NCBI GenBank assembly: GCA_043818055.1
Contig: JBDRGF010000153.1
Coordinates: forward strand, 1-32,832
Reading direction: 5' to 3'
DNA: 32,832 bases
From: Pseudomonadota bacterium
GTDB lineage: Bacteria; UBA10199; 2-02-FULL-44-16; JBDRGF01
A program made the translations under genes and the position numbers. A model generated the notes under the pieces. That model was given only the letters and a program-made list of their open reading frames with translations, searched no databases and was not told the DNA's origin. This document shows positions 2,503 through 26,041 of the stretch, in pieces (within the stretch, counting starts at the first letter, position 1; each line of letters starts with the position of its first letter).

Positions 2503-2625
2503 CAAATAACAAATCTCAAAAACCAAATAACAAATAAATTCCAAACACTCAAATCTCAAATAAAAACCTTTGGAATTTGTGATTTGGAGCTTATTTGTAT
2601 TTTGTAATTTGTATTTTGAAATTTC
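2503..2625. repeat. Heptamer-repeat hairpin, family A (CAAATAA/CAAATCT ... ATTTG)
   Basis: Left arm caaataa-caaatct-caaaaac-caaataa; right arm gatttg/tatttg/aatttg repeats; between ntpI and ntpK. Confidence 0.85.
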
Positions 2626-2655
2626 AAAATTTACCCTTTTAAAATATATCAATGG

Positions 2656-4395
2656 TCATTTTATTAGTGGTTTATACGGTACTCCTGTCAATTCTGCAAA
2701 CTTTGGTATCGCCTCCACTGCATGAAGTCTGCCCGGATGAACGAGTGCCCCCACTATTCCCATCGCAAAGTTAAAGCCGTGTCCTATTATCAAAATTATA
2801 ATCGTAAAGAGTATGCCGGCGTAGGGCACCTCTCCAGCTTGCATCGCAAGTTGGTTCACAACCGAGGCTATCGCACCGGTCGCTATCCCAAGGCCAAACA
2901 ACCTCGCATATGACATCACATCGCCGATGAGACTCGTGAGCCCATAGATATTCCAGAGCCCTAAGCCGACGCGCTTGAAGGGATTGTGCGATGAGGATGA
3001 CATGAAGAGTATGACAGCTACACCAAACGAGACAAGCGCCCACCAGTATTCGATCTTGAGAACCCCCAACACTCCACCCCACAAGACGAATATCCGTCCA
3101 AAGGATGCGAAGCGATCTTCTCCTTTATGTGCAGAGAGCAACGAGATGATGAAAGATATCGAGAGGTGAATCACTCCGAGCGCCACAGAGAGGTAGAAGA
3201 GCCTTATGGGATTTCCGAATTCGCTTGATACATCGAAGAGAATCCAACCTCGTTCATGCTGTGGAAATGAGATACCGAATATAGAACCTGTGATGAGTCC
3301 CCATGCTATGGTCGCGACACCAAAGAGCATCGTCAAATTTGTAACCGGCACGATTGCGGGAATTTTTTTTGCAAGATACCTTCGCATGATGAAAGCCGTG
3401 ACTATCATCATCGCGCCATAGCCGGCGTCGCCAAGGCATATACCGAAGAAGAGCATCATGAATGGCGCGAAGAAGGTCGCGGGATCGACGCTGTTGTAAT
3501 CAGGCACACCCAAAAGCTTCAGGAGAGGTTCGAATGTTTTTGTGAAACGGCTATTCTCAGTCAACACGGGAGGGGTTTCGTCTGCGTTGGGATCCCTCGA
3601 TTTGAGCGCGACGACATCCTCAAACTTTTTGAGTTCATCCGTGAGATATTGCAATTTATTTGCAGGAACCCAGCCGCCGACAGCGGTGAGATTTCCATCT
3701 GAATAACTCTGATGATATGCCTTCAAAAATTCGTATTCAGAGACCTCGTTCTCATATTCACTTTTGAGCGTCGGCAGATGAATGGCCATCGATCTTAATT
3801 TTCCCTCAACCATCTTTAATTCGTGATAGACCTGTATCAACCCCTCATTCACCTGAAAGAAATTTTTCTCGGGAATCGGGATTTCGTCAGCGCTTTTAGC
3901 TTCGAGCTTCCCGCCTGAAATAGTTATATAGTAGTGGCTCCCTTTATGAACGATCTCCTGTAAAAATTTTATATTTTCAAAATCGGTTTCAGAAAGTCCC
4001 TCCTCGCGGCTCTGCCAGAGCTGAACTACGATTCCCTTTTGATTGAGATAGTCTATCGCGGAAGGGTCAAAATCTCCCCAGATAGCCTGACGATCCCTCT
4101 CTCTGGTTAGAATCTCTATCTTGTCGTGCAGAGATCTCTTCTGTAACAAGGCTTTTGAGCCCTCTTCAAATGAGGTCTTTACGATACCGGGCTTTGGCTT
4201 ATATGTTTTTAGCTCCTCGATGAGATGGGCGTGTTCCCTGACATTGTGAGAGGCCTCCTCAAGCTCCTTATTAGGCTTTTCCTCTCCCATCTTCTCCGGA
4301 TGAATCACACCCAGACGCTGTAGCTCTCTTATGAGCCCATCCGCATGAGCACTCCTACCCAACACGATCACATATTTCATAGGTACTATTGCCAT
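2656..4395 (-). CDS. ntpI: V/A-type ATP synthase subunit I
   Basis: MAIVPMK start, GWVP, PPVLTEN, FFGICLGDAGYG, DVMSYARLFGLG (essential Arg), C-terminal YKP. Confidence 0.95.
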   Translation of the reverse strand: MAIVPMKYVIVLGRSAHADGLIRELQRLGVIHPEKMGEEKPNKELEEASHNVREHAHLIEELKTYKPKPGIVKTSFEEGSKALLQKRSLHDKIEILTRERDRQAIWGDFDPSAIDYLNQKGIVVQLWQSREEGLSETDFENIKFLQEIVHKGSHYYITISGGKLEAKSADEIPIPEKNFFQVNEGLIQVYHELKMVEGKLRSMAIHLPTLKSEYENEVSEYEFLKAYHQSYSDGNLTAVGGWVPANKLQYLTDELKKFEDVVALKSRDPNADETPPVLTENSRFTKTFEPLLKLLGVPDYNSVDPATFFAPFMMLFFGICLGDAGYGAMMIVTAFIMRRYLAKKIPAIVPVTNLTMLFGVATIAWGLITGSIFGISFPQHERGWILFDVSSEFGNPIRLFYLSVALGVIHLSISFIISLLSAHKGEDRFASFGRIFVLWGGVLGVLKIEYWWALVSFGVAVILFMSSSSHNPFKRVGLGLWNIYGLTSLIGDVMSYARLFGLGIATGAIASVVNQLAMQAGEVPYAGILFTIIILIIGHGFNFAMGIVGALVHPGRLHAVEAIPKFAELTGVPYKPLIK

Positions 4396-4403
4396 AAAAA
4401 ATC

Positions 4404-4479
4404 CGTGAAGCGTGAAACGTCATACGTGAAGCGCATTTTGTGATTAGAAGTTTTTACGCTTCACGAACGACGCTTCACG
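4404..4479. repeat. Heptamer-repeat hairpin, family B (CGTGAAG / CTTCACG)
   Basis: cgtgaag-cgtgaaa-cgtcata-cgtgaag ... cgcttca-cgaacga-cgcttca-cg; between ntpD and ntpI. Confidence 0.85.
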
Positions 4480-4482
4480 TCC

Positions 4483-5076
4483 TTAGGCTGTTTCAGCCAC
4501 ATGCTGCTCACCTAAAAGCTTTCCCTGCGCTATCTTCGCTACCATGACGCTAGCGCGCTCGCCATCTTCGAGACGCCCCTTTATATAGCGAATATCATCC
4601 TCGCCCTTCGGGACGAGCCGCTTCTCAAAGAGGTTTATCCTCTGAGTAGTTATAGTCAACTCCTCTTCGAGCAGCTCTAAAGCCGTGCTCAAAAATTCTA
4701 ACCTATTCTCCTCCTCGAACAATTTTTTTCTTAGTTCAACGAACTTGTCAAAAGAGGGGGGTGTAATAAGACGGCTATATTCCACCGGTTTAAAATCAAC
4801 GCTCTCAACAAGCGTGATCACAACGCCTGCTATATTTGTTGAGGATGTTTTGATATCGGATATCTCAACGAGCGATTCTATCTCATCATGAGGATTCAGG
4901 CTGAACCTCCTCTTTAGATCGATTACCCTCTTCTCCTGTTCATCGAACTTCCTCTCCCAGTCGAGTATCTCACGGTTGAGTTGCTTGCGACGCAGATCGA
5001 GCGTCGGTATCGCCCGCTCCAAACGAGCAACCTTAAGTTTAATCGACCTCAATTCACCTTTTGAGACTCGTACCAT
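4483..5076 (-). CDS. ntpD: V/A-type ATP synthase subunit D
   Basis: SKGEL...IPTLDLRRKQL, TTQRINLFEKRLVP motifs. Confidence 0.93.
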   Translation of the reverse strand: MVRVSKGELRSIKLKVARLERAIPTLDLRRKQLNREILDWERKFDEQEKRVIDLKRRFSLNPHDEIESLVEISDIKTSSTNIAGVVITLVESVDFKPVEYSRLITPPSFDKFVELRKKLFEEENRLEFLSTALELLEEELTITTQRINLFEKRLVPKGEDDIRYIKGRLEDGERASVMVAKIAQGKLLGEQHVAETA

Positions 5077-5080
5077 AAAA

Positions 5081-5188
5081 AATCCGTCGATCGTGAAGCG
5101 TCATTCGTGAAGCGTGTTTAGTATGGGTGTCTTTTTTTTGCGCTTCACGCTTCACGTTTCACGCTTCACGTTTCACGCTTCACGGATT
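5081..5188. repeat. Heptamer-repeat hairpin, family B, overlapping the ntpB 3' end
   Basis: Terminal inverted repeat AATCCGT...ACGGATT; six tandem (C/T)TTCACG units; encodes SVKRET* of NtpB. Confidence 0.85.
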
Positions 5189-6485
5189 CATAATATTCAT
5201 TCAAAATCTCTTCCTTTATCCTCAACACCCTTTTTGGTAAAATTCGTATCAGCTCCCAGCCCAAATCCAACGTTTGATTCAACGAGAGATCCTGATCGGC
5301 CGGCAGGAATCTCTTCTCAAACTCATCTGCAAATTTCAAATAAGCAAGATCAACCTCGTCCGTGATCGCAAAGCCCATCTCGCGCTGTTCTCTCAATGTC
5401 AGTGCGTTTGCGTATGCGGATACGCACGCATCCATGATCGCTCCGTGATCCTTTCTTGTCTCCTTGCCGACGACGAGCCCTTTGAGACGAGAGAGACATT
5501 TCATTATGACGAAGGCATTCTTTTCAACCGGCAGCTGTCCCTCTGTGATGTAGCCCGTCAGGTTGGCGACGATGTGCGAGAGGTCGTTATCGGGAACGGA
5601 GTTTACACCGATCACAGTCACGGAACCTCGCTCACCTCCGAAGTTCACAGCACGCTCGTAGATTCTCGCAAGCCGGCTGTAGAGATCTCCCGGGTAACCG
5701 TCGCGACTCGGGATCTTCCCCTGTGCGTTGGAAACCTCCATCAGCGCATCTGCATATCTCAGCATATCGGAAAGTACGACGAGCACGTGCTGGCCACTCA
5801 ATGCCAACTGCTCGGCGATTGCGCAGCAGATATGCGGCACGTTGAGCCGCTCTATCGGCGATTCTGATCCGAGGTTGACGACCATGGCCATGCGCTCCGC
5901 TGCATCAGCGAGAATATCCTTGAAGAAGAGATACTCCTCATTCAACAGACCCAACCCTCCAAAAATGACGCTAAAATTTTCCTGTCCGGCAACCCTCGCC
6001 TGACGAATGATCCGAGCGATGATCTTATTGATATCCTCTCCCGGAAGTTTGTAGATCGGTATTTTCTGTCCGCGCACGATAGTGTTTGCGCCATCTATCG
6101 CCGGAATGCCTGTTTCTATATATCCCGCCGAAAGAGCCCTTTTATATGGATTGACGACCGCCCCCTCGGTGTCGATGTTCTTGCCCTCTATCGGCGGCTT
6201 GCCATCGCGGGGGGCACCGATGCCGTCGAATATCCTCCCCAGAATGTATTCGGGATGAAAAGCGACCTGAAATGGATGCCCTGTGAATTCAATCTCCTGC
6301 GTATTTTTTACTCCAAGGCTCCCTTTGAGCGACTGAAGAAACGCACGATCCCCCTGCAGCTTCACGACCTTTGCATGCCCATAGTTCTCGAGTATCGCCT
6401 CTTCACCCATCCCGACCCTGTCGATACCTGAGACCTGAATGATAGGTCCTTCGACGTGCATTATTTGTGAATAAATTTTCTTCAT
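5166..6485 (-). CDS. ntpB: V/A-type ATP synthase subunit B
   Basis: IETGIPAID, RGQKIPI, GYPGDLYSRLARIYERA, LTGYITEGQ motifs. Confidence 0.95.
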   Translation of the reverse strand: MKKIYSQIMHVEGPIIQVSGIDRVGMGEEAILENYGHAKVVKLQGDRAFLQSLKGSLGVKNTQEIEFTGHPFQVAFHPEYILGRIFDGIGAPRDGKPPIEGKNIDTEGAVVNPYKRALSAGYIETGIPAIDGANTIVRGQKIPIYKLPGEDINKIIARIIRQARVAGQENFSVIFGGLGLLNEEYLFFKDILADAAERMAMVVNLGSESPIERLNVPHICCAIAEQLALSGQHVLVVLSDMLRYADALMEVSNAQGKIPSRDGYPGDLYSRLARIYERAVNFGGERGSVTVIGVNSVPDNDLSHIVANLTGYITEGQLPVEKNAFVIMKCLSRLKGLVVGKETRKDHGAIMDACVSAYANALTLREQREMGFAITDEVDLAYLKFADEFEKRFLPADQDLSLNQTLDLGWELIRILPKRVLRIKEEILNEYYESVKRET

Positions 6486-6506
6486 TAATAAAACTCCTTA
6501 CATCTG

Positions 6507-6642
6507 CAAATTATAAATAACAAATTACAAATCCCAAATTTCAAATAAATCCCAAATCGCAAGCTCCAAAATAGTGATACGATGTTTCGAATTTGATTTT
6601 TGGTGCTTATTTGTTATTTGTTATTTGAGATTTGTTATTTTG
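6507..6642. repeat. Heptamer-repeat hairpin, family A, overlapping the ntpA 3' end
   Basis: caaatta-taaataa-caaatta-caaatcc-caaattt ... ttatttg-ttatttg-ttatttg-agatttg; encodes QNNKSQITNNK* of NtpA. Confidence 0.85.
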
Positions 6643-8391
6643 TTCCCCCATTTCATTCAAAATGTTTCTGTATCCAATTTCATATTCCTTCGAAAAATTC
6701 GCCTGAGTTATTTTATATAGGAGATCTTCCTGCAATCTTCGCATCACCTGTTTCCCCGCGATCGGAAAATTGTCGATGACATCTGCAAAAAATTCCAGCA
6801 TCGCGTAATGCCTCTCCTGAGCGGTCGCGTTGTCGTTCGGATCAAATGTGTTTTGACTTAAGTATCCCTTCTGAATCAGATCGCCGATGAGCAACATCCT
6901 ATATTCCTCATCCGGCACTCCCTTCTCTCCCAATATCTCCACCTGACTCTTTATGCGCTCGCCGTGAAAGACTGTCTTTTTGAGTCTTTCCACCCTCTTC
7001 AGCCAGTCGGGAAACTTCATATTTGCGAAGAAGCGACCAAGTTCGTCGTATGATGTATCGAGATATTTCGAATGACATTCCATCGGATCGAAGGCGGGAA
7101 AGAGTCTCGCCGCTGCCCTCTTGCGGCTCAATATCAGCGCAACTTTGGCGGTCTGGATGCCTGCCTGAGTCGGAGGATCCCCAGCGATATCTCCTCCATC
7201 GGGAGAGAGTGCGGCGATCGTCGTGATAGAACCCTCGCGATTCGGACTTCCTAGGCATTTCACCTTGCCGGACCTTTCGAACCAGCGGGTGAGGTATGCC
7301 GACATATAAGCGGGAAATGCCTGCGGGCCGGGGATTTCGCCAAGACGACCCGACATCTCACGCATACCCTGAGCCTGCCGTGACAAACTGTCGGTAAGGA
7401 GCAATACGTCGTAGCCCATGTCCCTGTAATATTCTGCGAGTGTCGCTCCGACGAGGATACTTCCCTCTCTCGCGGCGACAGGCATAGCGCTCGTGTTGAC
7501 TAAAAGCACCGTCCTCTGTTCGAGCGGCAGTCCGGTCTCAGGATCCTTGAGTTCAGGAAATTCTTTAATAAGCTCCACCATCTCGCCGGCCCTCTCTCCG
7601 CAGCCGACGTAGATGACTATATGAGTTTTGCTGTGTCTGGAGAGATCGTGCTGACACATGGTCTTCCCAGTGCCGAAATCCCCCGGAATGCAGGCAGTGC
7701 CGCCACGCATGATCGGGTTGAAGCCGTCGATGACGCGAATGCCTGTGACAAGAGGCTCAGTGAGCTTCTCGCGATTCAACACCGGCCTTGGAATTCTGAT
7801 CGGCCAGCGCTGGTATAATTTGAGTTCATATTCTTTGCCGGAGCTATCGACTAACGTGCCAATCGCTTCTTCTACGGTGAAGGGGCCGCTATTGATATCC
7901 TTTATCTTCCCCTTTGGAAAATAAGGGGGGATCATGATGCGATGTTCGATGAGTGATGTCTCCTGAACTGTCCCTATGATGTCCCCGGGTAAGACCTCTT
8001 CTTCATTCTGTTTTGTCGGTTTGAATTCCCATTTCTTTTCCTTGTCGAGCGTGGGAGTTCTCTCTCCCCGCGGAAGGAAATCTCCGTAACCTTTGAGGCT
8101 GTTGCCGAGTCCGTCGAGGACGCTTGTCAGAAGTCCGGGGCCTAATTCAATATCGATGAGATTTCCTGTGAGCATTACCTCGTCGTTGACCATGAGGCCG
8201 GTCGTATCCTCGTAGCTTTGAAGGTCAGCGTGGCTGCCGCGGACGCGTATCAACTCACCGCGAAGATTAAGAGGGCCGATAAAACCCTCCTCGTTCATTA
8301 TAGCTGTGATCCCCTTCTTGGCGCTGCCGCCAAGATCGACGACCACGAGATTATCATCAACCATTACAATACGGGCTTTACGTTCTTTCAT
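6607..8391 (-). CDS. ntpA: V/A-type ATP synthase catalytic subunit A
   Basis: Walker A GDFGTGKT, YVGCGER, NTSAMPVAARE, AEYYRDMG, REMSGRL motifs. Confidence 0.96.
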   Translation of the reverse strand: MKERKARIVMVDDNLVVVDLGGSAKKGITAIMNEEGFIGPLNLRGELIRVRGSHADLQSYEDTTGLMVNDEVMLTGNLIDIELGPGLLTSVLDGLGNSLKGYGDFLPRGERTPTLDKEKKWEFKPTKQNEEEVLPGDIIGTVQETSLIEHRIMIPPYFPKGKIKDINSGPFTVEEAIGTLVDSSGKEYELKLYQRWPIRIPRPVLNREKLTEPLVTGIRVIDGFNPIMRGGTACIPGDFGTGKTMCQHDLSRHSKTHIVIYVGCGERAGEMVELIKEFPELKDPETGLPLEQRTVLLVNTSAMPVAAREGSILVGATLAEYYRDMGYDVLLLTDSLSRQAQGMREMSGRLGEIPGPQAFPAYMSAYLTRWFERSGKVKCLGSPNREGSITTIAALSPDGGDIAGDPPTQAGIQTAKVALILSRKRAAARLFPAFDPMECHSKYLDTSYDELGRFFANMKFPDWLKRVERLKKTVFHGERIKSQVEILGEKGVPDEEYRMLLIGDLIQKGYLSQNTFDPNDNATAQERHYAMLEFFADVIDNFPIAGKQVMRRLQEDLLYKITQANFSKEYEIGYRNILNEMGEQNNKSQITNNK

Positions 8392-8411
8392 CTGTTAAAC
8401 CTCCAAAAAAT

Positions 8412-8499
8412 CGCATATGGCATATGGCATGTAGTATGTGGTGAAAACCCCGGATTATATGGTTTTTACCATATACTATATACCATATGCCATATACGC
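8412..8499. repeat. Heptamer-repeat hairpin, family C (GCATATG/GCATGTA)
   Basis: gcatatg-gcatatg-gcatgta-gtatgtg, central spacer, then catatac-tatatac-catatgc-catatac; between subunits C and A. Confidence 0.85.
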
Positions 8500-8515
8500 C
8501 TTTTAAATTTCTATT

Positions 8516-9148
8516 CTAACCATTCAAAAGATATCTACCTTGATGCAGAGTTATATACTTCAACACATACCCCAGCACCTCGTTTTCATCAAATGTATAT
8601 CTTGGCGCTGCGTCGTTTAACCAGTTGAGCCTCTGTTTTAAGAGCACGCGGTCGAGCTTGAAGGGATCTTCATCCTCATAAGCCTCCCGCCACACCTCTT
8701 GGCCTGCTCCTCTCTGTCCCAGTCGAATCGCTTCAACACCGTTTCGCATCTTATTATCGAAATCCAACCAGTCGGCGAAGAACCCTTTGTCCCAGTCGAG
8801 TGAGCGATCGACAAGCTCGTTGAAATAGCTATGCCAGACTTTTTCAAAGGGATATCCCTCCTGCTTTGCACTAAGCCCCTCAAGCGCAAGCTCCAGCCAA
8901 TACGGAAGATTATCTTTTCTTTCCAGTTCATCCCTCCTGAAAACAACAGGCTCATGGATCTTCAAATTTCGAGAGATATCTTCAAGACACAAGATATCAA
9001 ATGTAAGAAAAAGTTCTCTCGACAATTTTGCAAGATTTCCACCTTCCTCCTCGATCCTCGCAAACAAAACTTCTCCTGCTATATCCGGCAAAAGCGGAGG
9101 ATCGGTTTCTATAGGTGGCAATGTCGATAATAAATATTCAAAGCTCAT
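8516..9148 (-). CDS. Putative V-ATPase subunit C-like protein (DUF2764-type)
   Basis: MSFEYLLSTLPP N-terminus resembles DUF2764; position between E and A matches the Chlamydia/Bacteroidetes/spirochaete operon order. Start moved to ATG 9148 because the upstream extension is repeat-derived. Confidence 0.7.
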   Translation of the reverse strand: MSFEYLLSTLPPIETDPPLLPDIAGEVLFARIEEEGGNLAKLSRELFLTFDILCLEDISRNLKIHEPVVFRRDELERKDNLPYWLELALEGLSAKQEGYPFEKVWHSYFNELVDRSLDWDKGFFADWLDFDNKMRNGVEAIRLGQRGAGQEVWREAYEDEDPFKLDRVLLKQRLNWLNDAAPRYTFDENEVLGYVLKYITLHQGRYLLNG

Positions 9149-9163
9149 AAAATTAAACCTTAG

Positions 9164-9286
9164 AAAAACCAAATTCCAAAAAACAAATAACAAATAACAA
9201 ATAATTTCCAAATTTCAAATTTCCAAAGTTTTGTAAATTGGAGTTTGTGATTTATTTGGGATTTGGAATTTGTATTTTGGATTTTT
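9164..9286. repeat. Heptamer-repeat hairpin, family A, overlapping the ntpE 3' end
   Basis: caaataa x3, caaattt x2 ... gatttg/aatttg repeats; encodes KSKIQIPNPK* of NtpE. Confidence 0.85.
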
Positions 9287-9899: not shown

Positions 9900-9962
9900 T
9901 CTCAACCTCCTGTTTTTAAACACTTTGACTGTTTGACTTTAGGAAAAACAAATCTGGCGCCC

Positions 9963-9991
9963 AAAATAGCACCATTGAAAGATTGATGCAA
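9963..9991 (-). promoter_or_regulatory. Putative sigma70 promoter of the V-ATPase operon
   Basis: TTGCAT-17 nt-TATTTT with TGn extended -10, about 60 nt upstream of ntpE. Confidence 0.5.
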
Positions 9992-10119
9992 AAGGTTAAT
10001 TTTAAAGGGAGAGCCTTAATTGAATGTCGTCATCGATTTGGTATAGTTCGTCTGCGATATCTTTTATATGCCCTTCGATGATGCTTGAATGCCGCCCGAA
10101 AAAGTTGCCTATGGGAGAA

Positions 10120-11439
10120 TTATAATTGGGGATAATTGGAAAAATCTATGGAACTTTGTATCGCATCTTCAAAGAATTGTGGATCTCCATTTTGAAAACG
10201 GCGCTTTGATAGATCATCAAGGGATGAAATAAAAATCCTCAATTCATCAGTTTTACCCTGATACACCAGAGAGAGAATTAATGTTCGTCTAACATCCTTT
10301 CCATTCAACGAAGTATGCCCGCACCTTAGAAGCTCTTTGCATAAAGGCTCCATTTCACATGATATTTGCTCAAGTTTAACAGACTCTCTGCGTTTGATAA
10401 GATCATCAACATCCGTTGCTAGCAAAGAGATATATGCTTCATATGTTTTTTTACCAAACACGCCTTCGGCCTTTACTCCCAACTTCACGGCCTCACGAAA
10501 TGAGTATAATGCCCATGGATAGAGTTCTCGCACACAATACTGTATTCCCAATATACCTGTCAGATCAGCCTTGAGTTCCTGAGAAAAGCCATCTGCCATA
10601 GCTATCGAATGTTTGATCAAAGAGGTATAATAATTCTGATCTATCTCTTCATCTGGAATAGCCGAGTGCAAGGATATCTGAACTAAGCAACCCCTGATAT
10701 TCACCGGCATTTCCGACTTATCGACTGAGAGGACATCCACTAGAAAGCTGTTCATGTTCGCAAGTTTCACATCTTCAGGAAAACGACTTATGCCAACCCT
10801 TACGATTTCGTGAGATTCACGCCAAAAACCGCTTCTTCCGGCAAAAGTAGCATGTTCAACAAAATCTACTGCCCTCGCACTTTTGAGTCGCTCAACATTT
10901 TGGGCATATACAAGAGCTTTTTGAAACTCTCCCTCATCAAAAATTTTTGTAGCTCGCGCTAAATTGCGCTGCGCGGGAGTCAGTTTTTTTGTTCCCTGCT
11001 CTAATTTTTCTAAAATTTTTGTCCTCGTAGGATTCTGTGCGGATCTCACTACGGTCAAATGGCTCCCTGAACCGGATTTACCAAATTTACTCTTTATCGC
11101 TGCCAATCCTAAGGTTGTTGTGCCTCCCATCGACAAAAGAGCTCCAATAAAGGGAAGTGAACCGTTAAGAAGTGAATAGAATTGAGCGGGATATATCCCA
11201 AAACCTGTCATGACATCGACCTCAAGGCCGACGATAAGGCGATTCGTTTGATCAAGGATGTTGCGACCTCCCTGAACTGATGATCGCCAAAGTGAACCGG
11301 TGAAGTTGTCTATTAATCCCAGACGATGGCAGTTTTGGTGAGTTGCCGACATATCCTGATCTTCAACAGGAATGATTGTCGGTTTTGGGGCAGCGGCATA
11401 AGAAGCAAAAATTTTTGATATAGAATTAATTGTAGTCAT
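10120..11439 (-). CDS. Hypothetical protein (439 aa), helical/TPR-like C-terminal part, one hydrophobic segment
   Basis: Long ORF with GAGGT RBS; segments such as FDEGEFQKALVYAQ and YPWALYSFREAVKL look TPR-like; no family recognised. Confidence 0.7.
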   Translation of the reverse strand: MTTINSISKIFASYAAAPKPTIIPVEDQDMSATHQNCHRLGLIDNFTGSLWRSSVQGGRNILDQTNRLIVGLEVDVMTGFGIYPAQFYSLLNGSLPFIGALLSMGGTTTLGLAAIKSKFGKSGSGSHLTVVRSAQNPTRTKILEKLEQGTKKLTPAQRNLARATKIFDEGEFQKALVYAQNVERLKSARAVDFVEHATFAGRSGFWRESHEIVRVGISRFPEDVKLANMNSFLVDVLSVDKSEMPVNIRGCLVQISLHSAIPDEEIDQNYYTSLIKHSIAMADGFSQELKADLTGILGIQYCVRELYPWALYSFREAVKLGVKAEGVFGKKTYEAYISLLATDVDDLIKRRESVKLEQISCEMEPLCKELLRCGHTSLNGKDVRRTLILSLVYQGKTDELRIFISSLDDLSKRRFQNGDPQFFEDAIQSSIDFSNYPQL

Positions 11440-11597
11440 AAGACCTCAAAAAATCATATTAATGAATTACCTAAAATAGGTAAAATAATCACCATCACAT
11501 AGCAACATTTTAATGTCTTGAGATCGACATCATAATGTTGACAAGAGGGTCTTCTATTGATTAGTTACACCCCACTCTGGGTATAACAATATTATCA

Positions 11598-11671
11598 GCG
11601 CCCGTAGCTCAGCGGATTAGAGTATCTGACTACGAATCAGAGGGTCGCAGGTTCGAATCCTGCCGGGCGCG
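11598..11671 (+). tRNA. tRNA-Arg (anticodon ACG), CCA not encoded
   Basis: Cloverleaf: acceptor GCGCCCG/CGGGCGC, D arm GCTC/GAGT, anticodon stem TCTGA/TCAGA with ACG at 11632-11634, T arm GCAGG-TTCGAAT-CCTGC. Confidence 0.97.
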
Positions 11672-11675
11672 CAAA

Positions 11676-11712
11676 GTAAAATCCTGGCCTTTTGGTCAGG
11701 ATTTTGCTTTTT
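11676..11712 (+). terminator. Rho-independent terminator after tRNA-Arg
   Basis: GTAAAATCCTGGCC-TTTT-GGTCAGGATTTTGC hairpin followed by TTTTT. Confidence 0.75.
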
Positions 11713-11835
11713 GTGCTCAGGAAGGTTCGCACCCGACTTCAGCCGGTTCGCGTACTTCAGTCAGTATGCCTAAGCATGCTGACAATACAATAATTACCTT
11801 AAAGTACGACGAGCCCGACGTAGGAGGGCGAAGTC

Positions 11836-11855
11836 AATCCTGCCGGACGCGCAAA
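11836..11855 (+). repeat. Direct repeat of the tRNA-Arg 3' end
   Basis: AATCCTGCCGGACGCGCAAA versus AATCCTGCCGGGCGCGCAAA at 11656-11675 (19/20 identical), 180 bp apart. Confidence 0.85.
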
Positions 11856-11883
11856 AAAGGCGGATTACAAATCCGCCTTTTTT
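11853..11883. terminator. Bidirectional rho-independent terminator
   Basis: AAAAAA-GGCGGATT-ACA-AATCCGCC-TTTTTT between convergent units. Confidence 0.85.
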
Positions 11884-11903
11884 CATCTAAAAATGTCCTT
11901 AAA

Positions 11904-12290: not shown

Positions 12291-12308
12291 ATTCCCCCCT
12301 TTTTTTTA

Positions 12309-12351
12309 GGTTATTGCTTATCGGTTTATCTTTTGCCGATTACCAATAACC
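12309..12351. repeat. Short hairpin with 7-nt periodic arms (GGTTATT-GCTTATC / CGATTAC-CAATAAC)
   Basis: GGTTATTG pairs with CAATAACC and ATCGG with CCGAT; lies a few nt after the atpE stop. Confidence 0.6.
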
Positions 12352-12355
12352 GAAC

Positions 12356-12704: not shown

Positions 12705-12743
12705 ACCACATGCTACATGCTACATGCTACATGCTACATACGC
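12705..12743. repeat. Family C heptamer repeat, single arm (CATGCTA x4)
   Basis: accacatgctacatgctacatgctacatgctacatacgc between atpB and atpE. Confidence 0.8.
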
Positions 12744-12753
12744 TTTTGATCCT

Positions 12754-13586: not shown

Positions 13587-13596
13587 CTGTAGCCCT

Positions 13597-14598: not shown

Positions 14599-14600
14599 AA

Positions 14601-14708
14601 CAATTAACAATTAATAATATCCAATTAACAATTATTTGTTTATTGTGTATTGGAAATTATTAATTGATTACTGTTAATTGTGAATTGTAAATTGTGTGTT
14701 GTTAATTG
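14601..14708. repeat. Heptamer-repeat hairpin, family D (CAATTAA / TTAATTG)
   Basis: Terminal 10-bp IR CAATTAACAA...TTGTTAATTG; internal ttaattg-tgaattg-taaattg; spans the hpnH stop to near the next start. Confidence 0.8.
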
Positions 14709-14714
14709 CCTTTT

Positions 14715-15476: not shown

Positions 15477-16265
15477 ATGCTATCCACCCTCAATAAAACG
15501 TTCGAAAGGGAGCTTTTTGCCATCGGAGAGAGGATGGTGGCGGTCACAACTGCACCATCTCAGATGATTGCAGGACTTGCCAGAAAAGCAACAACGCCGC
15601 CCGGCAAGATGATCCGCTCGATCGTGACGCTCACATGTGCAGAGGTGATCGATGTCAAAGGCGATGCTGTGACAAGCTTATGTGCCGCCTTGGAACTGAT
15701 ACATTCCGCGAGCCTTCTTCACGACGACATCATAGATGATGAGAAAATCAGGCGTGGAAACGATTCCTTCAGAATAAGAGATGGCGATAAGATGAGCCTG
15801 CTTGTAGGGGATTTTCTTTGGTGCGGGGCTATCGGCGAGATTCTTGCAATGAACGATATCAGTCTTCTTCGAAGCTTTCAGAGGGCTGCCCTCGATACGA
15901 TATCGGGTGAAATCTTAGAACTTCAAATGAAACAGAGCGGCGGGATGAGCCCTGAACTCTATCTTCAAATAATAGAGCTAAAGACGGCCTCACTTTTTAA
16001 ATTAGCAACTCGCATACCGGTTTTACTTTCACCAGCGGAGCCCACACTCGCTGAAAAACTGGAAAAGGTAGGCAGAACATTTGGTATCGCCTATCAGATC
16101 AGGGATGATCTTAACGATCACGAGAGTGATACTGCAACCTTGCCGGGCCCCGATTTTCTTCTCAAGGAGCTAAAGAAATATTCCGGCCTTGTAGAGAAAG
16201 CTATTTCATCCATTCCCGATTTTCATTTTGGAGGGGAACTCTTAACCCTCATCGCTCATGGATAA
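15477..16265 (+). CDS. Polyprenyl synthetase family protein
   Basis: GKMIR, ELIHSASLLHDDIID...RRG, KTASLF, YQIRDDLND. Confidence 0.9.
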   Translation: MLSTLNKTFERELFAIGERMVAVTTAPSQMIAGLARKATTPPGKMIRSIVTLTCAEVIDVKGDAVTSLCAALELIHSASLLHDDIIDDEKIRRGNDSFRIRDGDKMSLLVGDFLWCGAIGEILAMNDISLLRSFQRAALDTISGEILELQMKQSGGMSPELYLQIIELKTASLFKLATRIPVLLSPAEPTLAEKLEKVGRTFGIAYQIRDDLNDHESDTATLPGPDFLLKELKKYSGLVEKAISSIPDFHFGGELLTLIAHG

Positions 16266-16293
16266 AATTCACCTCTTGATTTGCCCAAATAGT

Positions 16294-16310
16294 TATCGCA
16301 CTATGCGATA
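16294..16310. promoter_or_regulatory. Perfect 7-3-7 palindrome TATCGCA-CTA-TGCGATA (candidate operator)
   Basis: About 30 nt upstream of the kdd start; overlaps a possible -10 (TTGATT-17-CACTAT, 16276-16304). Confidence 0.45.
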
Positions 16311-16341
16311 TGAGTCAGAATTCTTTTATGGGGGAAAAATT

Positions 16342-17394
16342 ATGAAATACAGACAGCATGGAGATAAATTCGGGAGGCATAGGGTTATAGAGCCTGAAGG
16401 GGCGCTTCCGCAGGCCGCAAAACAACTGGATAATAGTCTGCCATTATATGACAACGAGATACTGATCGATGTTAAGACGCTCAATATCGATTCAGCCTCC
16501 TTTCGCCAGATGAAGGAGGAGGCGGGCGGCGATCCCAAAAAGGTAGCCAAACAGGTGCTGCAAAATGTGTCGCGCATGGGGAAGCAGCAGAATCCGGTCA
16601 CAGGATCAGGGGGAATGCTCCTCGGAGAGGTAAGTGATATCGGCCCGGGATACTCCAATCTCCATAATCTGAACGTCGGGGATCCTGTGTGTACGCTCGT
16701 CTCGTTGACACTCACCCCCCTTTTGATTGAAGAGATAGTAGATGTGAGGGATTCAGAGCAGATAGACATCAGAGGGCATGCGATCCTCTTCGATTCTGGA
16801 GTCCTTGCTAAGGTGCCATATGATATAAAGCTCAATACAACTCTCGCACTTTTGGATGTCGCAGGTGCTGCACCTCAGACTGAGAGACTCGTCAAAAGTG
16901 GAGACAGGATATACATAATAGGTGCAGGAAAATCGGCAGTGCTCTGCGCAGCAGCGATCAGAAAAAAACTTAACAATGATTGTTCGATCTCTGTATCAGC
17001 TACAAAACAGGAGAGTCTCGACGCGTTCAAAGAGCTTGGACTCTGCAACCATGCATTCATAGCAAATGCGCTTAAGCCGACAGAGGTGCTGGATGTTATG
17101 ACCGATTTCACAAATGGCCACATGTGCGATCTCGTCATCAACACCGCGAACGTCGAAGGGACAGAGCTCGCCTCAGTCCTCACATGCAGACAGGGGGGGA
17201 AGGTTTACTTTTTCAACATGGCGACTAATTTTCAAAAAGCAGCGCTCGGAGCCGAAGGGGTTGGAATGGATGTTGAGATGATAATCGGAAACGGCTATGC
17301 TGCTAACCACGCCGAAGTGACGCTTGATCTCTACAGGACAATGCCGGCGGTAAAAAAGTGGTTCGATAAAAAATTTGGGGGAGTGAATGAGTGA
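16342..17394 (+). CDS. kdd: L-erythro-3,5-diaminohexanoate dehydrogenase
   Basis: GRHRVIEPEGALPQAA, LNIDSASF, QNPVTGSGGML, TLVSLTLTP, LDVAGA, AALGAEGVG, IGNGY. Confidence 0.93.
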   Translation: MKYRQHGDKFGRHRVIEPEGALPQAAKQLDNSLPLYDNEILIDVKTLNIDSASFRQMKEEAGGDPKKVAKQVLQNVSRMGKQQNPVTGSGGMLLGEVSDIGPGYSNLHNLNVGDPVCTLVSLTLTPLLIEEIVDVRDSEQIDIRGHAILFDSGVLAKVPYDIKLNTTLALLDVAGAAPQTERLVKSGDRIYIIGAGKSAVLCAAAIRKKLNNDCSISVSATKQESLDAFKELGLCNHAFIANALKPTEVLDVMTDFTNGHMCDLVINTANVEGTELASVLTCRQGGKVYFFNMATNFQKAALGAEGVGMDVEMIIGNGYAANHAEVTLDLYRTMPAVKKWFDKKFGGVNE

Positions 17395-18640
17395 TAAGCT
17401 AACGTCCGTATATCAAAGGAGAAAAAAACTTTGGAAAGATGCAACACCAGGCGAGTGGAACGACTGGCAATGGCAGATCAAGAATAGAATCACAGATGTT
17501 AACAATCTCTCGAAGGCCATAAAATTAACAGCTAAAGAAAAGGCTGATATCAACAAGGCCATAAAACATTCCAGGTTTCAGCTGACCCCATATTGCCTCT
17601 CCCTCATCGATGAGAATGACCCCTTCTGTCCAATTCGTCTTCAGGCCATCCCCAGCATAAAAGAGATAGAGCCGGGAAAGGGTGATATCTATGATCCGCT
17701 GGCTGAGGACAGAGATTCTCCAGTTGAAGGTCTGGTGCATCGCTATCCCGACAGGGCGCTCTTTCTTGTTTCTGAAGTCTGCTCGATGTATTGCAGGTTC
17801 TGCACGCGTCGTCGTCATGTCTTGAATCGTGACGATAAGGCGATGTGGCAGAGATATAACAAGGCCTTCAACTATATAGAAAAACACAAGGAGATTCGCG
17901 ATGTGATAATCTCCGGCGGCGACGCCCTTATGCTCTCAGATGAAAAGCTCGAAGAGGTGATAGCGAGGGTAAGAAAAATTTCACATGTGGAGATCATTAG
18001 AGTCGCATCGCGTACGCCATGCGTGATGCCCCAGAGGATTACAGATGCACTTGTGAATATGCTAAAAAAATATCAGCCGATATATTTCATGACTCATTTC
18101 AACCATCCTTACGAGATCACCGATGCCGCAAAAACAGCGTGTGAAAAAATTACAGATGCGGGAATACCTTTATTCAACCAATCGGTCTTGTTGAGAAAGA
18201 TAAATTCAGATCCGATGATAATGAAGAAGTTAATGCATAAACTTCTGAAGATCCGGGTGAAACCTTATTACATCTATCAGTGCGATCCTGCTCAAGGAAT
18301 CGAACATTTCAGAACACCTGTTGCCAAAGGGATCGAAATCATGGAATACCTCAGGGGGCATACATCCGGACTCGCTCTGCCAACTTTAGTCCTCGACGCC
18401 CCCGGCGGCGGAGGAAAGATTCCTATCATGCCCAACTACCTGCTCACCATGACGGTGGATGCTGCAGTTGTGAGAAATTATAGAGGGATGATGAGCGTTT
18501 ATATCAACCCGCTCAACGTAGATTGCAGCTGTTCAACGACTGAAAAGATAGAAAGAGGTCTGACAAAAGAATCTCCTAAGGACAGGGTGTTCTTAGATAT
18601 GCTGGAAGGCAAAAGAGTGATGTTGGAACCTAAAATATGA
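17387..18640 (+). CDS. kamA: Lysine 2,3-aminomutase
   Basis: WNDWQWQ, HRYPDR, CSMYCRFCTRRR, YQCD, LRGHTSG, DAPGGGGKIP (PLP lysine). Confidence 0.95.
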   Translation: MSDKLTSVYQRRKKLWKDATPGEWNDWQWQIKNRITDVNNLSKAIKLTAKEKADINKAIKHSRFQLTPYCLSLIDENDPFCPIRLQAIPSIKEIEPGKGDIYDPLAEDRDSPVEGLVHRYPDRALFLVSEVCSMYCRFCTRRRHVLNRDDKAMWQRYNKAFNYIEKHKEIRDVIISGGDALMLSDEKLEEVIARVRKISHVEIIRVASRTPCVMPQRITDALVNMLKKYQPIYFMTHFNHPYEITDAAKTACEKITDAGIPLFNQSVLLRKINSDPMIMKKLMHKLLKIRVKPYYIYQCDPAQGIEHFRTPVAKGIEIMEYLRGHTSGLALPTLVLDAPGGGGKIPIMPNYLLTMTVDAAVVRNYRGMMSVYINPLNVDCSCSTTEKIERGLTKESPKDRVFLDMLEGKRVMLEPKI

Positions 18641-18643
18641 AAG

Positions 18644-18729
18644 GCGTATATAGCATATGGCATGTAGCATATGGTAAAAGCCTCGTTAAACGAGATTTTC
18701 CATATACTATATGCTATATGCCATATGCG
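18644..18729. repeat. Heptamer-repeat hairpin, family C
   Basis: gcatatg-gcatgta-gcatatg, spacer with CTCGTTAAACGAG mini-hairpin, then complementary arm; between kamA and kamD. Confidence 0.85.
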
Positions 18730-18737
18730 GTTTTAAA

Positions 18738-20279
18738 ATGGCTTATAACAAACTGAATTTAGACAGGGATAAGATAGACAGCTGCCGCCATCTGGCGAAG
18801 AGAATAGTCTCGCCTGTCCAGAAGTATATCAAGCACCATTCGACCACATCTATCGAGAGGACAGTCTTAAGAATCCTAGGTGTTGAAGGGGCGCTCGATG
18901 AGATGCCATATGTCAATCTCATCGTCGACAAGTTGGATAGAGATTGTTTAAGGCGCGGAATTGCACAGTGGTTTGGAAAAGCACTTGTTCATACAGGTAT
19001 GAGCGTTAACGATCTGGCAAAGGCTGTAGCAAAAGGGGAAGTAAATCTTAAGGATGCTGAAAAGGTGCCGCGCGAAAAGATGATTTCAGCTGTCGAGCCT
19101 CTCATCCGTGATGGCATCTCAAAATTCGATGGCTGTAAGAGGAGAAAGGAACACCTCCTTGCAAAATTCAAAGGCACAAAGACGCCGCTCAAATATGTTA
19201 TAGTAGCGACCGGAAATATCCATGACGATGCCGCGCAGGCTGTCGCAGCGGTCGAGGCAGGCGCCGACATCATTGCGGTGATAAGGGCCACAGCCCAATC
19301 CCTCCTCGACTATGTGCCTGAAGGGATCACGACAGAGGGATTCGGTGGAACATTTGCAACACAGGCTAATTTCAAGGTCATGCGTCAGGCGCTCGATGAT
19401 ATCGGCAAAAAAGTAGGTCGCTTCATCCGATTGACTAATTACTCCTCAGGGCTTTGCATGTCGGAGATCGCCGCTGTAGCCGCGTTCGAAAATCTCGACA
19501 TGGTCCTCAATGACTCCATGTACGGCATACTCTTTCGGGATATCAACATGAAGCGCACATTTATCGACCAGTATTTTTCAAGGTTGATCTGCGCACGTTC
19601 ACAGATCACCATAAACACGGGAGAGGATAATTACCTGACGACGACCGATGCCTTTCGAAACGCCCATCACGTTTTGACGAGCCAGTTCATAAATGAGCAG
19701 TTCGCCCTTCATTCAAATCTGACTTTCGATCTCATGGGGCTCGGACATGCATTTGAAATCGATCCCAACATCGAAGATGGCTTTCTCTATGAGTTAGCAC
19801 AGGCCGAGATGGTCAGGGAGATCTTTCCGAGATGTCCTATAAAATATATGCCTCCCACGAAATACATGACAGGCGACATCTTCTTCGGAAATGTTCTCGA
19901 CGCCATGTTCAATATCGTTGGAGTTATGACGGAGCAATCGATACAGCTTCTGGGAATACCGACTGAGGCGATTCACAATCCTCATCTTCAGGATCGACAC
20001 TGGGCGATCAAGAACGCAAACTACATCTTCAACAGCGCAAGACACTTAGGAGATGAGATAACCTTCAACCCAAACGGAAAGATAGCAAGGCGCGCACACA
20101 CAGTCCTCGACAACGTTCATAAATATCTGAAACGAATTGAGGGCACAGGTCTCATGAAAGCAATATCCACAGGAATGTTCGCGGAAATCGAGCGCGATGA
20201 AAATGGCGGAAAAGGTTTGAATGGCGTCTTTCAAAAGGCCAGAGACTACTACAATCCGGCACTGGAGATGTTGAAATGA
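18738..20279 (+). CDS. kamD: Lysine 5,6-aminomutase alpha subunit
   Basis: YVIVATGNI, AVIRATAQSLLDYVP, ATQANF, NYSSGLCM, YGILFRDINM, INTGEDNY, KYMPPTK. Confidence 0.95.
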   Translation: MAYNKLNLDRDKIDSCRHLAKRIVSPVQKYIKHHSTTSIERTVLRILGVEGALDEMPYVNLIVDKLDRDCLRRGIAQWFGKALVHTGMSVNDLAKAVAKGEVNLKDAEKVPREKMISAVEPLIRDGISKFDGCKRRKEHLLAKFKGTKTPLKYVIVATGNIHDDAAQAVAAVEAGADIIAVIRATAQSLLDYVPEGITTEGFGGTFATQANFKVMRQALDDIGKKVGRFIRLTNYSSGLCMSEIAAVAAFENLDMVLNDSMYGILFRDINMKRTFIDQYFSRLICARSQITINTGEDNYLTTTDAFRNAHHVLTSQFINEQFALHSNLTFDLMGLGHAFEIDPNIEDGFLYELAQAEMVREIFPRCPIKYMPPTKYMTGDIFFGNVLDAMFNIVGVMTEQSIQLLGIPTEAIHNPHLQDRHWAIKNANYIFNSARHLGDEITFNPNGKIARRAHTVLDNVHKYLKRIEGTGLMKAISTGMFAEIERDENGGKGLNGVFQKARDYYNPALEMLK

Positions 20280-21121
20280 TAAAAATCAATCCAAAAAAGA
20301 TAAGGGCTTATGGCGACAGGCTTGACGATAGCATTGTTCAACTCTCTTTTACTCTACCTGTAAAACCATCATTGCAGGCAAAAGAGGCAGCACGAATGTA
20401 TGTAAAAAAAATGGGACTCACCAACATCAATGTGGCATTTATGGAGGATCTTGGTGGAGGATTTACGACATTCGTCATTTACGCAAATTCAAAGGAGAGC
20501 ATAGACATTACCAAAATTCACGTTCCAAAAGTTGAATACCAGCATTTTAAATACAAGGAACTTGCGGAATACATGCAGGATCATCTGAAGGAACCTATCA
20601 TCGTCGTCGGAGCTACCACAGGAAGCGACGCCCATACAGTCGGCCTCGATGCGATCATGAACATGAAGGGATATAACCACGACTACGGTCTGGAGCGCTA
20701 TCCGTTATTCAAGGCTTATAATTTAAGAAGCCAGCTCAGTAACAAGGAATTGATCGAGAAGGCCGCTCAGTTAAAAGCTGACGTAATCCTCATATCTCAG
20801 ATCGTCACTCAGCGCGACGCGCACATCGCCAACCTGAAGGAATTCAAAAAAATCGTTAAAGAGAACAAAGATCTTTCAAAAGACCTTATAACGATAACAG
20901 GTGGGCCTCGCATGGATCATATTCAAGCGGTAAAGCTTGGGTTTGATGCGGGCTTTGGACCGGGAACCCTTCCATCCCAGGTTGCGAGCTTTATCGTACA
21001 TGAATATATGAAGAGAAAAGGAATCGCATACGTCTCGCACAAACAAGAAAAAACTGTAAAGGATGAAACAAAAAAAGAGTCTCATCCCAGAAGGCGTGTG
21101 AGGAGATGGGGAAAAAGATAA
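20276..21121 (+). CDS. kamE: Lysine 5,6-aminomutase beta subunit (B12-binding)
   Basis: YGDRLDD..VQLSFTLP, SDAHTVGLDAIMNMKG (DxHxxG plus PLP Lys), GFDAGFGPGT. Confidence 0.95.
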   Translation: MIKINPKKIRAYGDRLDDSIVQLSFTLPVKPSLQAKEAARMYVKKMGLTNINVAFMEDLGGGFTTFVIYANSKESIDITKIHVPKVEYQHFKYKELAEYMQDHLKEPIIVVGATTGSDAHTVGLDAIMNMKGYNHDYGLERYPLFKAYNLRSQLSNKELIEKAAQLKADVILISQIVTQRDAHIANLKEFKKIVKENKDLSKDLITITGGPRMDHIQAVKLGFDAGFGPGTLPSQVASFIVHEYMKRKGIAYVSHKQEKTVKDETKKESHPRRRVRRWGKR

Positions 21122-21948
21122 ATAAATTAATCATAACAGCCGCGATAACCGGCGCTGAAACTACAAAGGAGATGAATCCAAATCTTCCGGTGACTGCTGA
21201 AGAACAGGCTAAAGAAGCCAGGGAATGCGTAAAAGCAGGTGCCGCGATCATTCATCTTCATGTGAGAGATAGTAAGGGAAACCCATCACAAAAAATTGCG
21301 GATTTTAAAAGATCGATAGAGGCAATAAATGATTCATGCGATCCTCGTCCTATCACCCAGATTTCAACCGGCGGTGCAGTCGGCGCTTCTATCGAAGATC
21401 GCATTAAACCCATTGTCAAACTCAAACCTGAATTCGCATCCCTAAACATCGCATCGATGAATTTTGGTGAAGATGTCTTTATCAATCATCCAAAGGATGT
21501 AAAAAAACTGGCCACTACTTTGAAAGACCTGAACGTCGCTTACGAAGTTGAAGTTTACGACGCGGGACATATCGAAAGTGCAAAGAGGTTGGCAAAGAAG
21601 GGGGTCATCAGAACGCCTATTCACTACCAGTTTGTGTTGGGAGTTCATGGTGGCATGAGTGGAGATCTTCGAAATTTGAATTTTCTAATAGATTCGATAG
21701 ATGAGGGGGATACCTGGAGTGTGGCCGGCATCGGCAGATATGAATATCCTCTGGCCGTAGAAGCGGTTAAGCGCGGAGGCTTTGTCCGCGTTGGCTTCGA
21801 GGATAATATATATTATGAAAAAGGCGTGCTTGCAAAAAGCAACTCCCAGTTGGTAGAAAGGATCTCTCGCCTCGCAAACGAATTGAAAAGGGAGATCGCA
21901 ACCCCCGATGAGGCGAGGAAGATGTTAAATCTCAAAAGTCGCATGTAG
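21106..21948 (+). CDS. kce: 3-keto-5-aminohexanoate cleavage enzyme (DUF849/BKACE)
   Basis: LIITAAITGAE, IIHLHVRD, STGGAVG, VRVGFEDN, ATPDEAR; within the lysine cluster. Confidence 0.92.
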   Translation: MGKKINKLIITAAITGAETTKEMNPNLPVTAEEQAKEARECVKAGAAIIHLHVRDSKGNPSQKIADFKRSIEAINDSCDPRPITQISTGGAVGASIEDRIKPIVKLKPEFASLNIASMNFGEDVFINHPKDVKKLATTLKDLNVAYEVEVYDAGHIESAKRLAKKGVIRTPIHYQFVLGVHGGMSGDLRNLNFLIDSIDEGDTWSVAGIGRYEYPLAVEAVKRGGFVRVGFEDNIYYEKGVLAKSNSQLVERISRLANELKREIATPDEARKMLNLKSRM

Positions 21949-22024
21949 CATGTGGTATGTGGTTTGTAGAAAAGCTCGTTTAACGAGGTTCTTACCACAG
22001 GCTACATGCTACATGCCACATGCG
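21940..22024. repeat. Heptamer-repeat hairpin, family C, supplying the kce stop codon
   Basis: cgcatgTAG-catgtgg-tatgtgg, spacer CTCGTTTAACGAG, ctacatg-ctacatg-ccacatg-cg. Confidence 0.85.
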
Positions 22025-22032
22025 GTTTATTT

Positions 22033-22962
22033 ATGAGTGGAATCGGAATCATAATCAATCCCTATTCGCGTGCGAACCGGTCGAATCCAAAACGAGCTGA
22101 GCAGTTTGGATTCATCGTCGGCGATAGGGGTACCTGTCACCGGACGAAGGACCTCAAAGATGTTGAGCGCCTCGCGAGGGAGTTCAAAGAACGTGGCGTT
22201 GAGATCCTTGGAATTTCAGGCGGAGATGGCACAAACCATGTGACTCTCTCCACATTCCTCGATGTCTATGGGGATGAACCACTTCCGAAGATCGCGTTCT
22301 TGCGTGGCGGCACGATGAACAATCTCGCAAACGAGCTTGGAATAAAGGGTAAATCCGAAAAAATCCTCTCCAACCTCATACTCAAATATCACCACGGGGA
22401 TAAACTCAACGAGCGTGATATCAACCTGATGAAGATAAACGGGAAATATGGTTTCATATTCGGCATGGGTGTCGTCACCGAATTCACAAAAGTCTATCAT
22501 TCCAAAGATGGATATCCCTCCCCTCAGCGCGCTGCCTGGATTCTGTTACACTGTATTCTGTCCGGCATCATAAATGGAAAGTTCGTAGGGAGGCTGGCGC
22601 GGCGTTTTGAAGCGGATATCTTCTGTGACGGTAAAAAAACGCCATTCGTGAATTGGACGATGCTAGTCGCCGGCACCATAAAAAATTTGGGTTTAGGCTT
22701 CAACGCCATAGCAAGGGCATATGAGGACCCTGAAAAATTTCATTTCATCGGGATGTCAGATACTCCGAGAGGAATTATAAAACAATTTCCGCGCGCGCTG
22801 ATGTCGAAGCCTTTCAATTCAGAACATTTTTTTGATGAGATCTGCAAAGAGCTTGTCATAAAGCTCCCCAAAGAGATGACCTACACAATCGACGGCGATA
22901 TGTTTGATGATAAAGAGATTAAGATAACGCTGGGCCCAAAGATCAGGTGTATAATTCCTTAA
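22033..22962 (+). CDS. Diacylglycerol/lipid kinase family protein
   Basis: IIINPYS, GGDGT, GGTMN, IDGD motifs; start moved to ATG 22033 because the upstream part is repeat. Confidence 0.88.
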   Translation: MSGIGIIINPYSRANRSNPKRAEQFGFIVGDRGTCHRTKDLKDVERLAREFKERGVEILGISGGDGTNHVTLSTFLDVYGDEPLPKIAFLRGGTMNNLANELGIKGKSEKILSNLILKYHHGDKLNERDINLMKINGKYGFIFGMGVVTEFTKVYHSKDGYPSPQRAAWILLHCILSGIINGKFVGRLARRFEADIFCDGKKTPFVNWTMLVAGTIKNLGLGFNAIARAYEDPEKFHFIGMSDTPRGIIKQFPRALMSKPFNSEHFFDEICKELVIKLPKEMTYTIDGDMFDDKEIKITLGPKIRCIIP

Positions 22963-22967
22963 AAAAC

Positions 22968-23048
22968 CGCATGTAGCATATGGCATATGGTCAAAGGCTC
23001 GATTTAATAGATTTTACCCATATACTATATGCAATATGCTATATACGC
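22968..23048. repeat. Heptamer-repeat hairpin, family C, between convergent genes
   Basis: gcatgta-gcatatg-gcatatg ... catatac-tatatgc-aatatgc-tatatac-gc. Confidence 0.85.
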
Positions 23049-26037: not shown

Positions 26038-26041
26038 GAGC

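Follow-up and report, generated by a model that had tools for sequence, protein, structure and literature searches.

Paired heptamer arms at gene junctions of a Pseudomonadota genome recur around IVP genes

Tandem arrays of seven-nucleotide repeats have been described between the genes of several bacteria. The closest described layout is that of the GGGAATC repeat of Xanthomonas and Nostoc, which forms tandem heptamers of about 4 units, is roughly 90% intergenic and includes 70-75 inverted pairs in one arrangement (Rehm et al. 2015, PMC4692102). [quoted passage not shown] Here we describe related elements in a stretch of 32,832 nucleotides from a Pseudomonadota bacterium (GCA_043818055.1, contig JBDRGF010000153.1, our contig C153), hereafter the window, in which a sequence-only reading had listed 12 intergenic elements made of heptamer arrays in inverted orientation. 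Like the Xanthomonas type, they are intergenic tandem 7-mers that form inverted pairs of fixed arrangement near stop codons. Unlike it, they comprise 15 multi-copy families rather than a single G-rich one, use periods of 7 and 8, are tied to cassettes of the four-helix-bundle IVP gene family (TIGR02436/PF05635), and have window units without runs of three G, hence without the G-tracts of G-quadruplexes.

A second precedent is the intervening sequence of the Coxiella 23S rRNA, in which heptamers precede an S23p open reading frame (ORF) and RNase III cuts at the first repeat (Warrier et al., PMC4990558). The elements described here resemble it in having complementary terminal arms with tandem heptamers, in forming a long stem of RNase III substrate length and in the decaying IVP cargo (S23p/IVP, PF05635) found at 5 loci of the genome. 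They differ in that the window copies carry no ORF, and in that copies sit at mRNA junctions, in tRNA spacers and next to or inside RNAs other than 23S rRNA. Junction heptamers are also known from the TAACTGA repeats of Beggiatoaceae, for which MacGregor proposed translational control (PMC4679880), and from Geobacter, where the part of the report available to us gives no mechanism (PMC2700814). Together with the cyanobacterial short tandemly repeated repetitive sequences, these are intergenic heptamer arrays near start codons and in housekeeping operons, with stops in all frames. The accessible accounts describe the TAACTGA and Geobacter repeats, in contrast to ours, as single direct arrays or one-family paired sites and propose no cassette gene. 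IVP proteins are noted homologues of Avd, the accessory protein of diversity-generating retroelements, in the portion of the literature available to us (PMC10053308). Unlike such a retroelement, the IVP loci have no reverse transcriptase among the genes within about 1.8 kb, and the IVPs reach only 25-26 bits on the bAvd profile, below its cut-off of 40.

Repetitive extragenic palindromes (REP), the REPIN-RAYT systems built from them and MITEs (miniature inverted-repeat transposable elements) are small non-autonomous inverted-repeat units that are extragenic, present in many copies and copied whole. The inverted doublet described here is likewise copied as a unit to extragenic sites. However, its arms are periodic arrays instead of one palindrome, no flanked transposase was found, and the genome's two Y1 transposase genes have no array within 250 nt, unlike REPIN-RAYT. 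The paired layout is already in print for one unit, that of Xanthomonas; we found no paper linking junction heptamer arms to IVP genes in literature searches covering openly accessible main texts. At a probability of roughly 0.6, we read the elements as two-armed hairpins carrying the arms of resident IVP cassettes, likely cargo-less derivatives that were copied whole into gene boundaries.

Paired arms across the genome and around IVP genes

The genome comprises 2.93 Mb in 166 contigs. Scoring it for tandem arrays gave 235 loci of period 7, compared with 41 of period 6 and 54 of period 8. A second scorer found 351 period-7 and 74 period-8 arrays, against 9-59 for periods 5, 6, 9, 10 and 11. 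Gene cores taken from our own gene calls cover 83% of the genome, yet 321 of the 351 period-7 arrays and 64 of the 74 period-8 arrays fall outside them. A reverse-complement partner lies within 150 nt of 140 period-7 arrays, compared with a direct partner for 33; the corresponding numbers for period 8 are 31 and 5, and the remaining periods yielded only 0-3 arrays with an inverted partner. The 7-nt period and predominance of inverted partners seen from the sequence alone thus extend genome-wide, but 7 is not the sole period, as period 8 belongs to the system too. Two-armed stems above threshold occur in 161 of 392 array clusters, and lone arms are common, with 231 arrays lacking a scored partner. 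The two-armed hairpins occupy 113 co-directional, 24 convergent and 19 divergent junctions, 3 contig edges and 2 sites in genes. Among the 60 contigs longer than 15 kb, the window is the densest in elements. Contigs from other public runs span the elements at 6507, 9164, 18644 and 22968 with 0 differences, so these are not assembly artefacts. The heptamer hairpin system is real and genome-wide.

The same arms surround IVP genes. There are 5 TIGR02436 matches in the genome, which are related to the pentamer PDB 2GSC, and Pfam assigned PF05635 to both of those tested. Inverted 7- or 8-mer arrays flank all five loci; one locus is truncated by the end of its contig, so that the downstream arm alone is visible. 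For each locus there is a cargo-less family with matching arms of like polarity (7-mers shared at a score of 31-52, versus 0-1 when flipped), and two of the loci match families 0 and 1 of the window. Decayed copies retain their arms, including one with an internal stop and one between rpmA and obgE that is internally shortened. The sequence-only reading had noted heptamer arrays around IVP genes of other bacteria and suggested that the window elements could be cargo-less versions. That association holds at 5/5 loci here, the search for copies enclosing an ORF returned five IVP loci with arms of these families, and the shared polarity supports the suggestion of cargo-less versions.

We asked the same of IVP loci elsewhere, using a sample of 80 loci from many phyla, of which 7 were dropped for short flanks and 73 analysed. 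Inverted arms exceeded the 95th percentile of mismatched pairs at 55 loci, compared with 10 for direct arms, and the 99th percentile at 27, compared with 5. A period-7 array was present at 50 of the 73 loci, whereas periods 5 and 6 gave 0. Among 41 distinct first-arm units from other phyla, 32 contain the dinucleotide AG once per repeat and 5 contain its complement; the information content of this register (3.65) was above all 20 flipped and 20 shuffled controls. Within the class, 28 of 41 genomes have an IVP gene.

Two further observations concern IVP-like genes. In a relative (G006), the RNase P RNA gene is 813 nt long (locus L050, 1211-2023, G006:C50) and contains an armed IVP gene; in the genome studied, one end of the RNase P RNA gene adjoins a heptamer hairpin. 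Separately, genes of a divergent IVP-like subfamily (L060, L061, L062 and others) are paired head to head at a distance of about 140 nt, and an in-frame TGA is frequent in them; one palindrome separates the two genes, and heptamer arms are absent upstream.

Clustering of the elements across the genome gave 15 multi-copy families and 24 singletons. The claim of several families from the sequence alone was therefore sound, but calling them entirely unrelated was an overstatement, since the AG register is common around IVP genes, though weak in the genome's own families. Arms contain a median of 3.9 repeats (range 2-5.5), and the span is 86 nt. Of the elements having a relative, 148 of 151 share a common arm order, implying that first and second arm are not interchangeable. 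In family 1, unlinked copies have an internal asymmetry in common (orientation consistency of 0.79, null maximum of 0.51) and lie 10 with and 6 against transcription. These results imply that family 1 was copied as whole units, either way round. Orientation by transcription was rejected for the largest family (17/27, p = 0.25), within which only sub-family 2 showed such an orientation (9 of 10), a score that flanks may bias. Nested in the loop of some hairpins is a further family, or a palindrome that is found beside a DUF559 gene as well.

Arrays such as these might instead have grown in place, through local slippage followed by inverted duplication and gene conversion, with no mobile unit. 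The abundance of lone arms and the variable repeat number indicate that slippage does act on the arms. As a full account, it leaves unexplained the common arm order, the shared asymmetry of unlinked copies, the confinement to periods 7 and 8, the nesting of one family in another and the recurrence of the same arms around IVP genes. Slippage on its own is thus largely refuted, and we give it very little weight. The sequence-only reading had favoured a common mechanism or structure-recognising factor over slippage, which agrees with this outcome, except that its premise of unrelated primary sequence went too far.

Window elements and their junctions in relatives

All 12 elements listed from the sequence alone were found where they had been placed, although the list was incomplete in that it missed a thirteenth. 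When folded, 11 of the 12 stretches form long hairpins (z-scores of -3.1 to -10.1 relative to dinucleotide shuffles), and the copy described as single-armed, at 12705, is indeed a lone first arm. Each of the 13 elements sits between protein genes or at the end of one, and none is inside a 23S rRNA gene. Their hosts are the V-ATPase operon E-C-A-B-D-I-K, F0 subunits a and c, hpnH, and the kamA-kamD-kamE-kce genes.

Every junction of the V-ATPase operon, which is on the minus strand, holds a two-armed 7-mer hairpin. The AT-rich family 5 supplies three of these, at the E-C junction (9164..9285, z = -3.1), the A-B junction (6507..6640, z = -5.4) and the junction between I (stop at 2656) and K (start at 2486; element 2503..2631, z = -4.2). 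Family 1 occupies the B-D junction (5081..5184, z = -7.3) and the D-I junction (4404..4480, z = -7.1), where the element ends 9 nt before the start codon of I, while a family 2 element fills the C-A junction (8406..8504, z = -9.1). The stop codons of subunits E, A and B lie inside first arms, and the C-terminal tails of all three subunits are encoded by repeats.

Downstream of F0 subunit c and 5' of a DUF5684 gene is a short, degenerate two-armed hairpin (12309..12352, z = -3.9) that falls below the array threshold. The lone first arm on the minus strand (12705..12746, z = -1.85) is a 7-mer array of the same kind as families 0 and 2 and lies directly 3' of the F0 subunit a stop. The remaining two-armed 7-mer hairpins belong to family 3 at the junction of hpnH and an hpnG-like gene, starting at the hpnH stop (14599..14708, z = -3.4); to family 2 at the kamA-kamD junction of lysine fermentation (18641..18733, z = -10.1); to family 0, which is shared with the intact IVP cassette of contig C10, where the element overlaps the stop of kce (21938..22028, z = -9.1); and to family 2 at a convergent junction that is filled stop to stop (22963..23053, z = -4.1). 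The element missing from the original list is a lone 8-mer first arm on the plus strand (28283..28320) that provides the stop codon of the ORF at 26165-28294. By eye, it belongs to the same 8-mer family as the flanks of an IVP remnant on contig C33.

The placement seen in the window is typical of the genome. Among the 113 co-directional elements, 77 begin no more than 15 nt from the upstream stop (expectation per base, 11.5%), 74 would leave a gap of 40 nt or less if removed, and 21 have the upstream stop inside the first arm. First arms close 1.98 of 3 reading frames per 35 nt, compared with 1.17 for second arms and 1.50 for control spacers. Junctions are filled at a similar rate whether co-directional (111/1763), convergent (24/280) or divergent (18/278), which fits gene boundaries, rather than bases, as the site. 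An array also lies within 110 nt of 15 of the 46 tRNAs, and one family favours tRNA and rRNA-operon spacers.

We compared orthologous junctions with relatives of the same order, up to 10 distinct ones for V-ATPase, counting L065 once as a duplicate of L165 and judging unit types by eye. No close relative was found within the genus or family; a metagenome scan gave a single relative at 78%, which duplicates G020, together with 79 loci at about 40% that were left unused. V-ATPase junctions are filled (insert of at least 74 nt) in 6 of 6 cases here, compared with 10 of 54 in relatives, where those that are filled mostly hold different units or palindromes of other kinds. Subunit genes A and B overlap by 4 nt in 6 of 9 relatives. 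At kamA-kamD, the 11 relatives divide into 4 with periodic hairpins built of different 7- or 8-mer units, 3 with other palindromes and 4 in which the junction is short. Conversely, kamD and kamE overlap here, whereas 3 of 11 relatives have heptamer hairpins between them. Both empty and filled versions of the same junctions therefore exist for V-ATPase and kam, a comparison that the sequence-only reading had proposed.

Two other types of extragenic palindrome occur in the window, a REP-like one at 2047-2070, 3' of V-ATPase K, and a longer one at 26040-26150, between two oxidoreductase genes; in relatives, such palindromes are among those filling the same operon junctions. Elsewhere, positions 741-1884 hold a broken HEPN gene (stop at 944), an MntA-type nucleotidyltransferase and an ORF on the opposite strand, a decayed toxin-antitoxin pair. 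At 11598-11860, a tRNA is followed 180 nt on by a 20-nt repeat of its 3' portion, which is suggestive of a former integration. The ORFs at 10120-11439 (439 aa) and 32036-32668 (210 aa) have no Pfam match.

Roles in RNA, candidate mobilisers and spread

Stems of 25-55 bp inside operons differ from intrinsic terminators, which have a short GC-rich stem and a U tract and stand at operon ends. A scan for short intrinsic terminators was at chance level (17 matches, 18.1 expected), Rfam found only a tRNA, and there was no CRISPR spacer array, in agreement with the view from the sequence alone that the elements are neither simple terminators nor CRISPR. As to splicing-out of the hairpins, the contigs of one RNA library contained no joint skipping an element and spanned those at 6507 and 12705 intact; DNA may be present in this library, and its contigs cannot show ends, levels or cleavage.

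Might the stems at cistron junctions have been selected by the host as RNA elements, which would act in RNase III processing or stability or bind a protein that tunes the next gene's translation, with mobility secondary? The strong folding of the elements as a whole fits this idea, as do the clustering of filled junctions in operons (odds ratio of 2.8), the arrays near tRNAs noted above and the translational control proposed by MacGregor for a similar repeat in the accessible text (PMC4679880). On the sense strand, G-U mismatches exceed A-C mismatches (386 versus 305, p = 0.015 against a 51.2% composition control), although this excess is small, the copies lack independence, and the same bias would come from deamination on the non-template strand. 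Moreover, the same junctions are empty in most relatives, those that are filled carry unrelated units or palindrome types, and family 1 occurs in both orientations. We therefore consider host selection as the primary explanation unlikely, while a secondary use of the elements as RNA signals is compatible with the junction and orientation evidence.

Alternatively, a nuclease or transposase might move the hairpins as non-autonomous elements, much as in REPIN-RAYT, with GxxExxY or Y1 as the mobiliser and the IVP gene as a passenger. A GxxExxY fragment in the genome has inverted periodic arms of its own, but these match no cargo-less family (score of 8, compared with 31-52 for IVP), and GxxExxY was rejected as the mobiliser. 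Full-length GxxExxY occurs in 1 of 41 genomes of the class and not in the genome studied, far fewer than have IVP. Several copies of a C/G-rich palindrome stand on either side of a DUF559 gene (G000:C73:10500-11500), empty copies of this palindrome nest in heptamer hairpin loops at about 8 loci, and this too speaks for a nuclease. However, the Y1 genes stand without arrays, and the DUF559 gene and the RNase III gene rnc have no heptamer array within 250 nt. On balance, a nuclease-driven origin appears improbable, even more so than host selection. In the window, a palindromic element at 24385-24445 resembles the DUF559-flanking family; it lies in frame within a NuoE/NuoF-like ORF (23689-26037) and adds a short Pro/Gly/Arg-rich stretch.

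Whole-unit spread and derivation from IVP cassettes rest on the arms shared with IVP loci, the comparison of V-ATPase junctions and the asymmetry of family 1. Several results weigh against this explanation. No enzyme was tied to the arms: IVP is without known catalytic activity, and the two reverse-transcriptase genes, like the two Y1 genes, have no array within 250 nt. Families 3 and 5, which account for 4 window elements, match no IVP locus of the genome, and the AG register was not significant among the genome's own 27 family units (15 versus 8, information content within controls). Across 19 relatives, IVP count and array density were unrelated (medians of 2.0 and 1.0 per 100 kb, p = 0.34) in samples of 20-100 kb per relative, a small comparison among non-independent kin. 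One relative without an IVP match (G001) has 9 arrays per 100 kb, and another with 19 IVP matches (G005) has no arrays in its sample. No target-site duplication was seen, with direct repeats of at least 5 nt at 12% of elements and 9% of controls, where element ends were set by periodicity only and no close empty site was at hand. The relatives are distant (V-ATPase B identity of 77-90%), so no exact empty site was seen and single insertions are undated. Lastly, survivor bias can partly account for the hugging of stop codons and the placement at junctions.

If the elements do derive from IVP cassettes, a cassette would lose its ORF while its arms remain. The arm pair might then be copied at the DNA level, by recombination or repair functions of the host that act on the fold-back, the IVP pentamer serving as a putative arm-binding factor that reads the once-per-repeat AG register. 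Copies would persist at gene ends, between tRNAs and in the loops of structured RNAs. We propose that they survive with the junction still working because the first arm ends the upstream frame and the stem either loops out of the RNA or undergoes trimming by RNase III, the gene for which (rnc) is present, by analogy with rRNA intervening sequences.

A more specific version of this scheme is tentative, and we think it rather less probable than derivation from IVP cassettes as such. It posits a distinct minimal mobile element, in which a non-catalytic, Avd-like pentamer recognises AG once per 7 nt on fold-back arms, irrespective of the remaining unit sequence, and together with an enzyme of the host inserts copies of hairpins, with or without a gene, at gene boundaries and in RNA loops. 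If true, such an element would explain the long-noted excess of heptamers in bacteria and give the IVP family a function. The shared arms join three separate matters: the excess of 7-base repeats between genes, so far unexplained, the paired repeats at Xanthomonas junctions and the IVP/S23p proteins of rRNA intervening sequences, which have no assigned function. In addition, these insertions rewrite the C-termini of core enzymes, here of three V-ATPase subunits, with consequences for gene calling.

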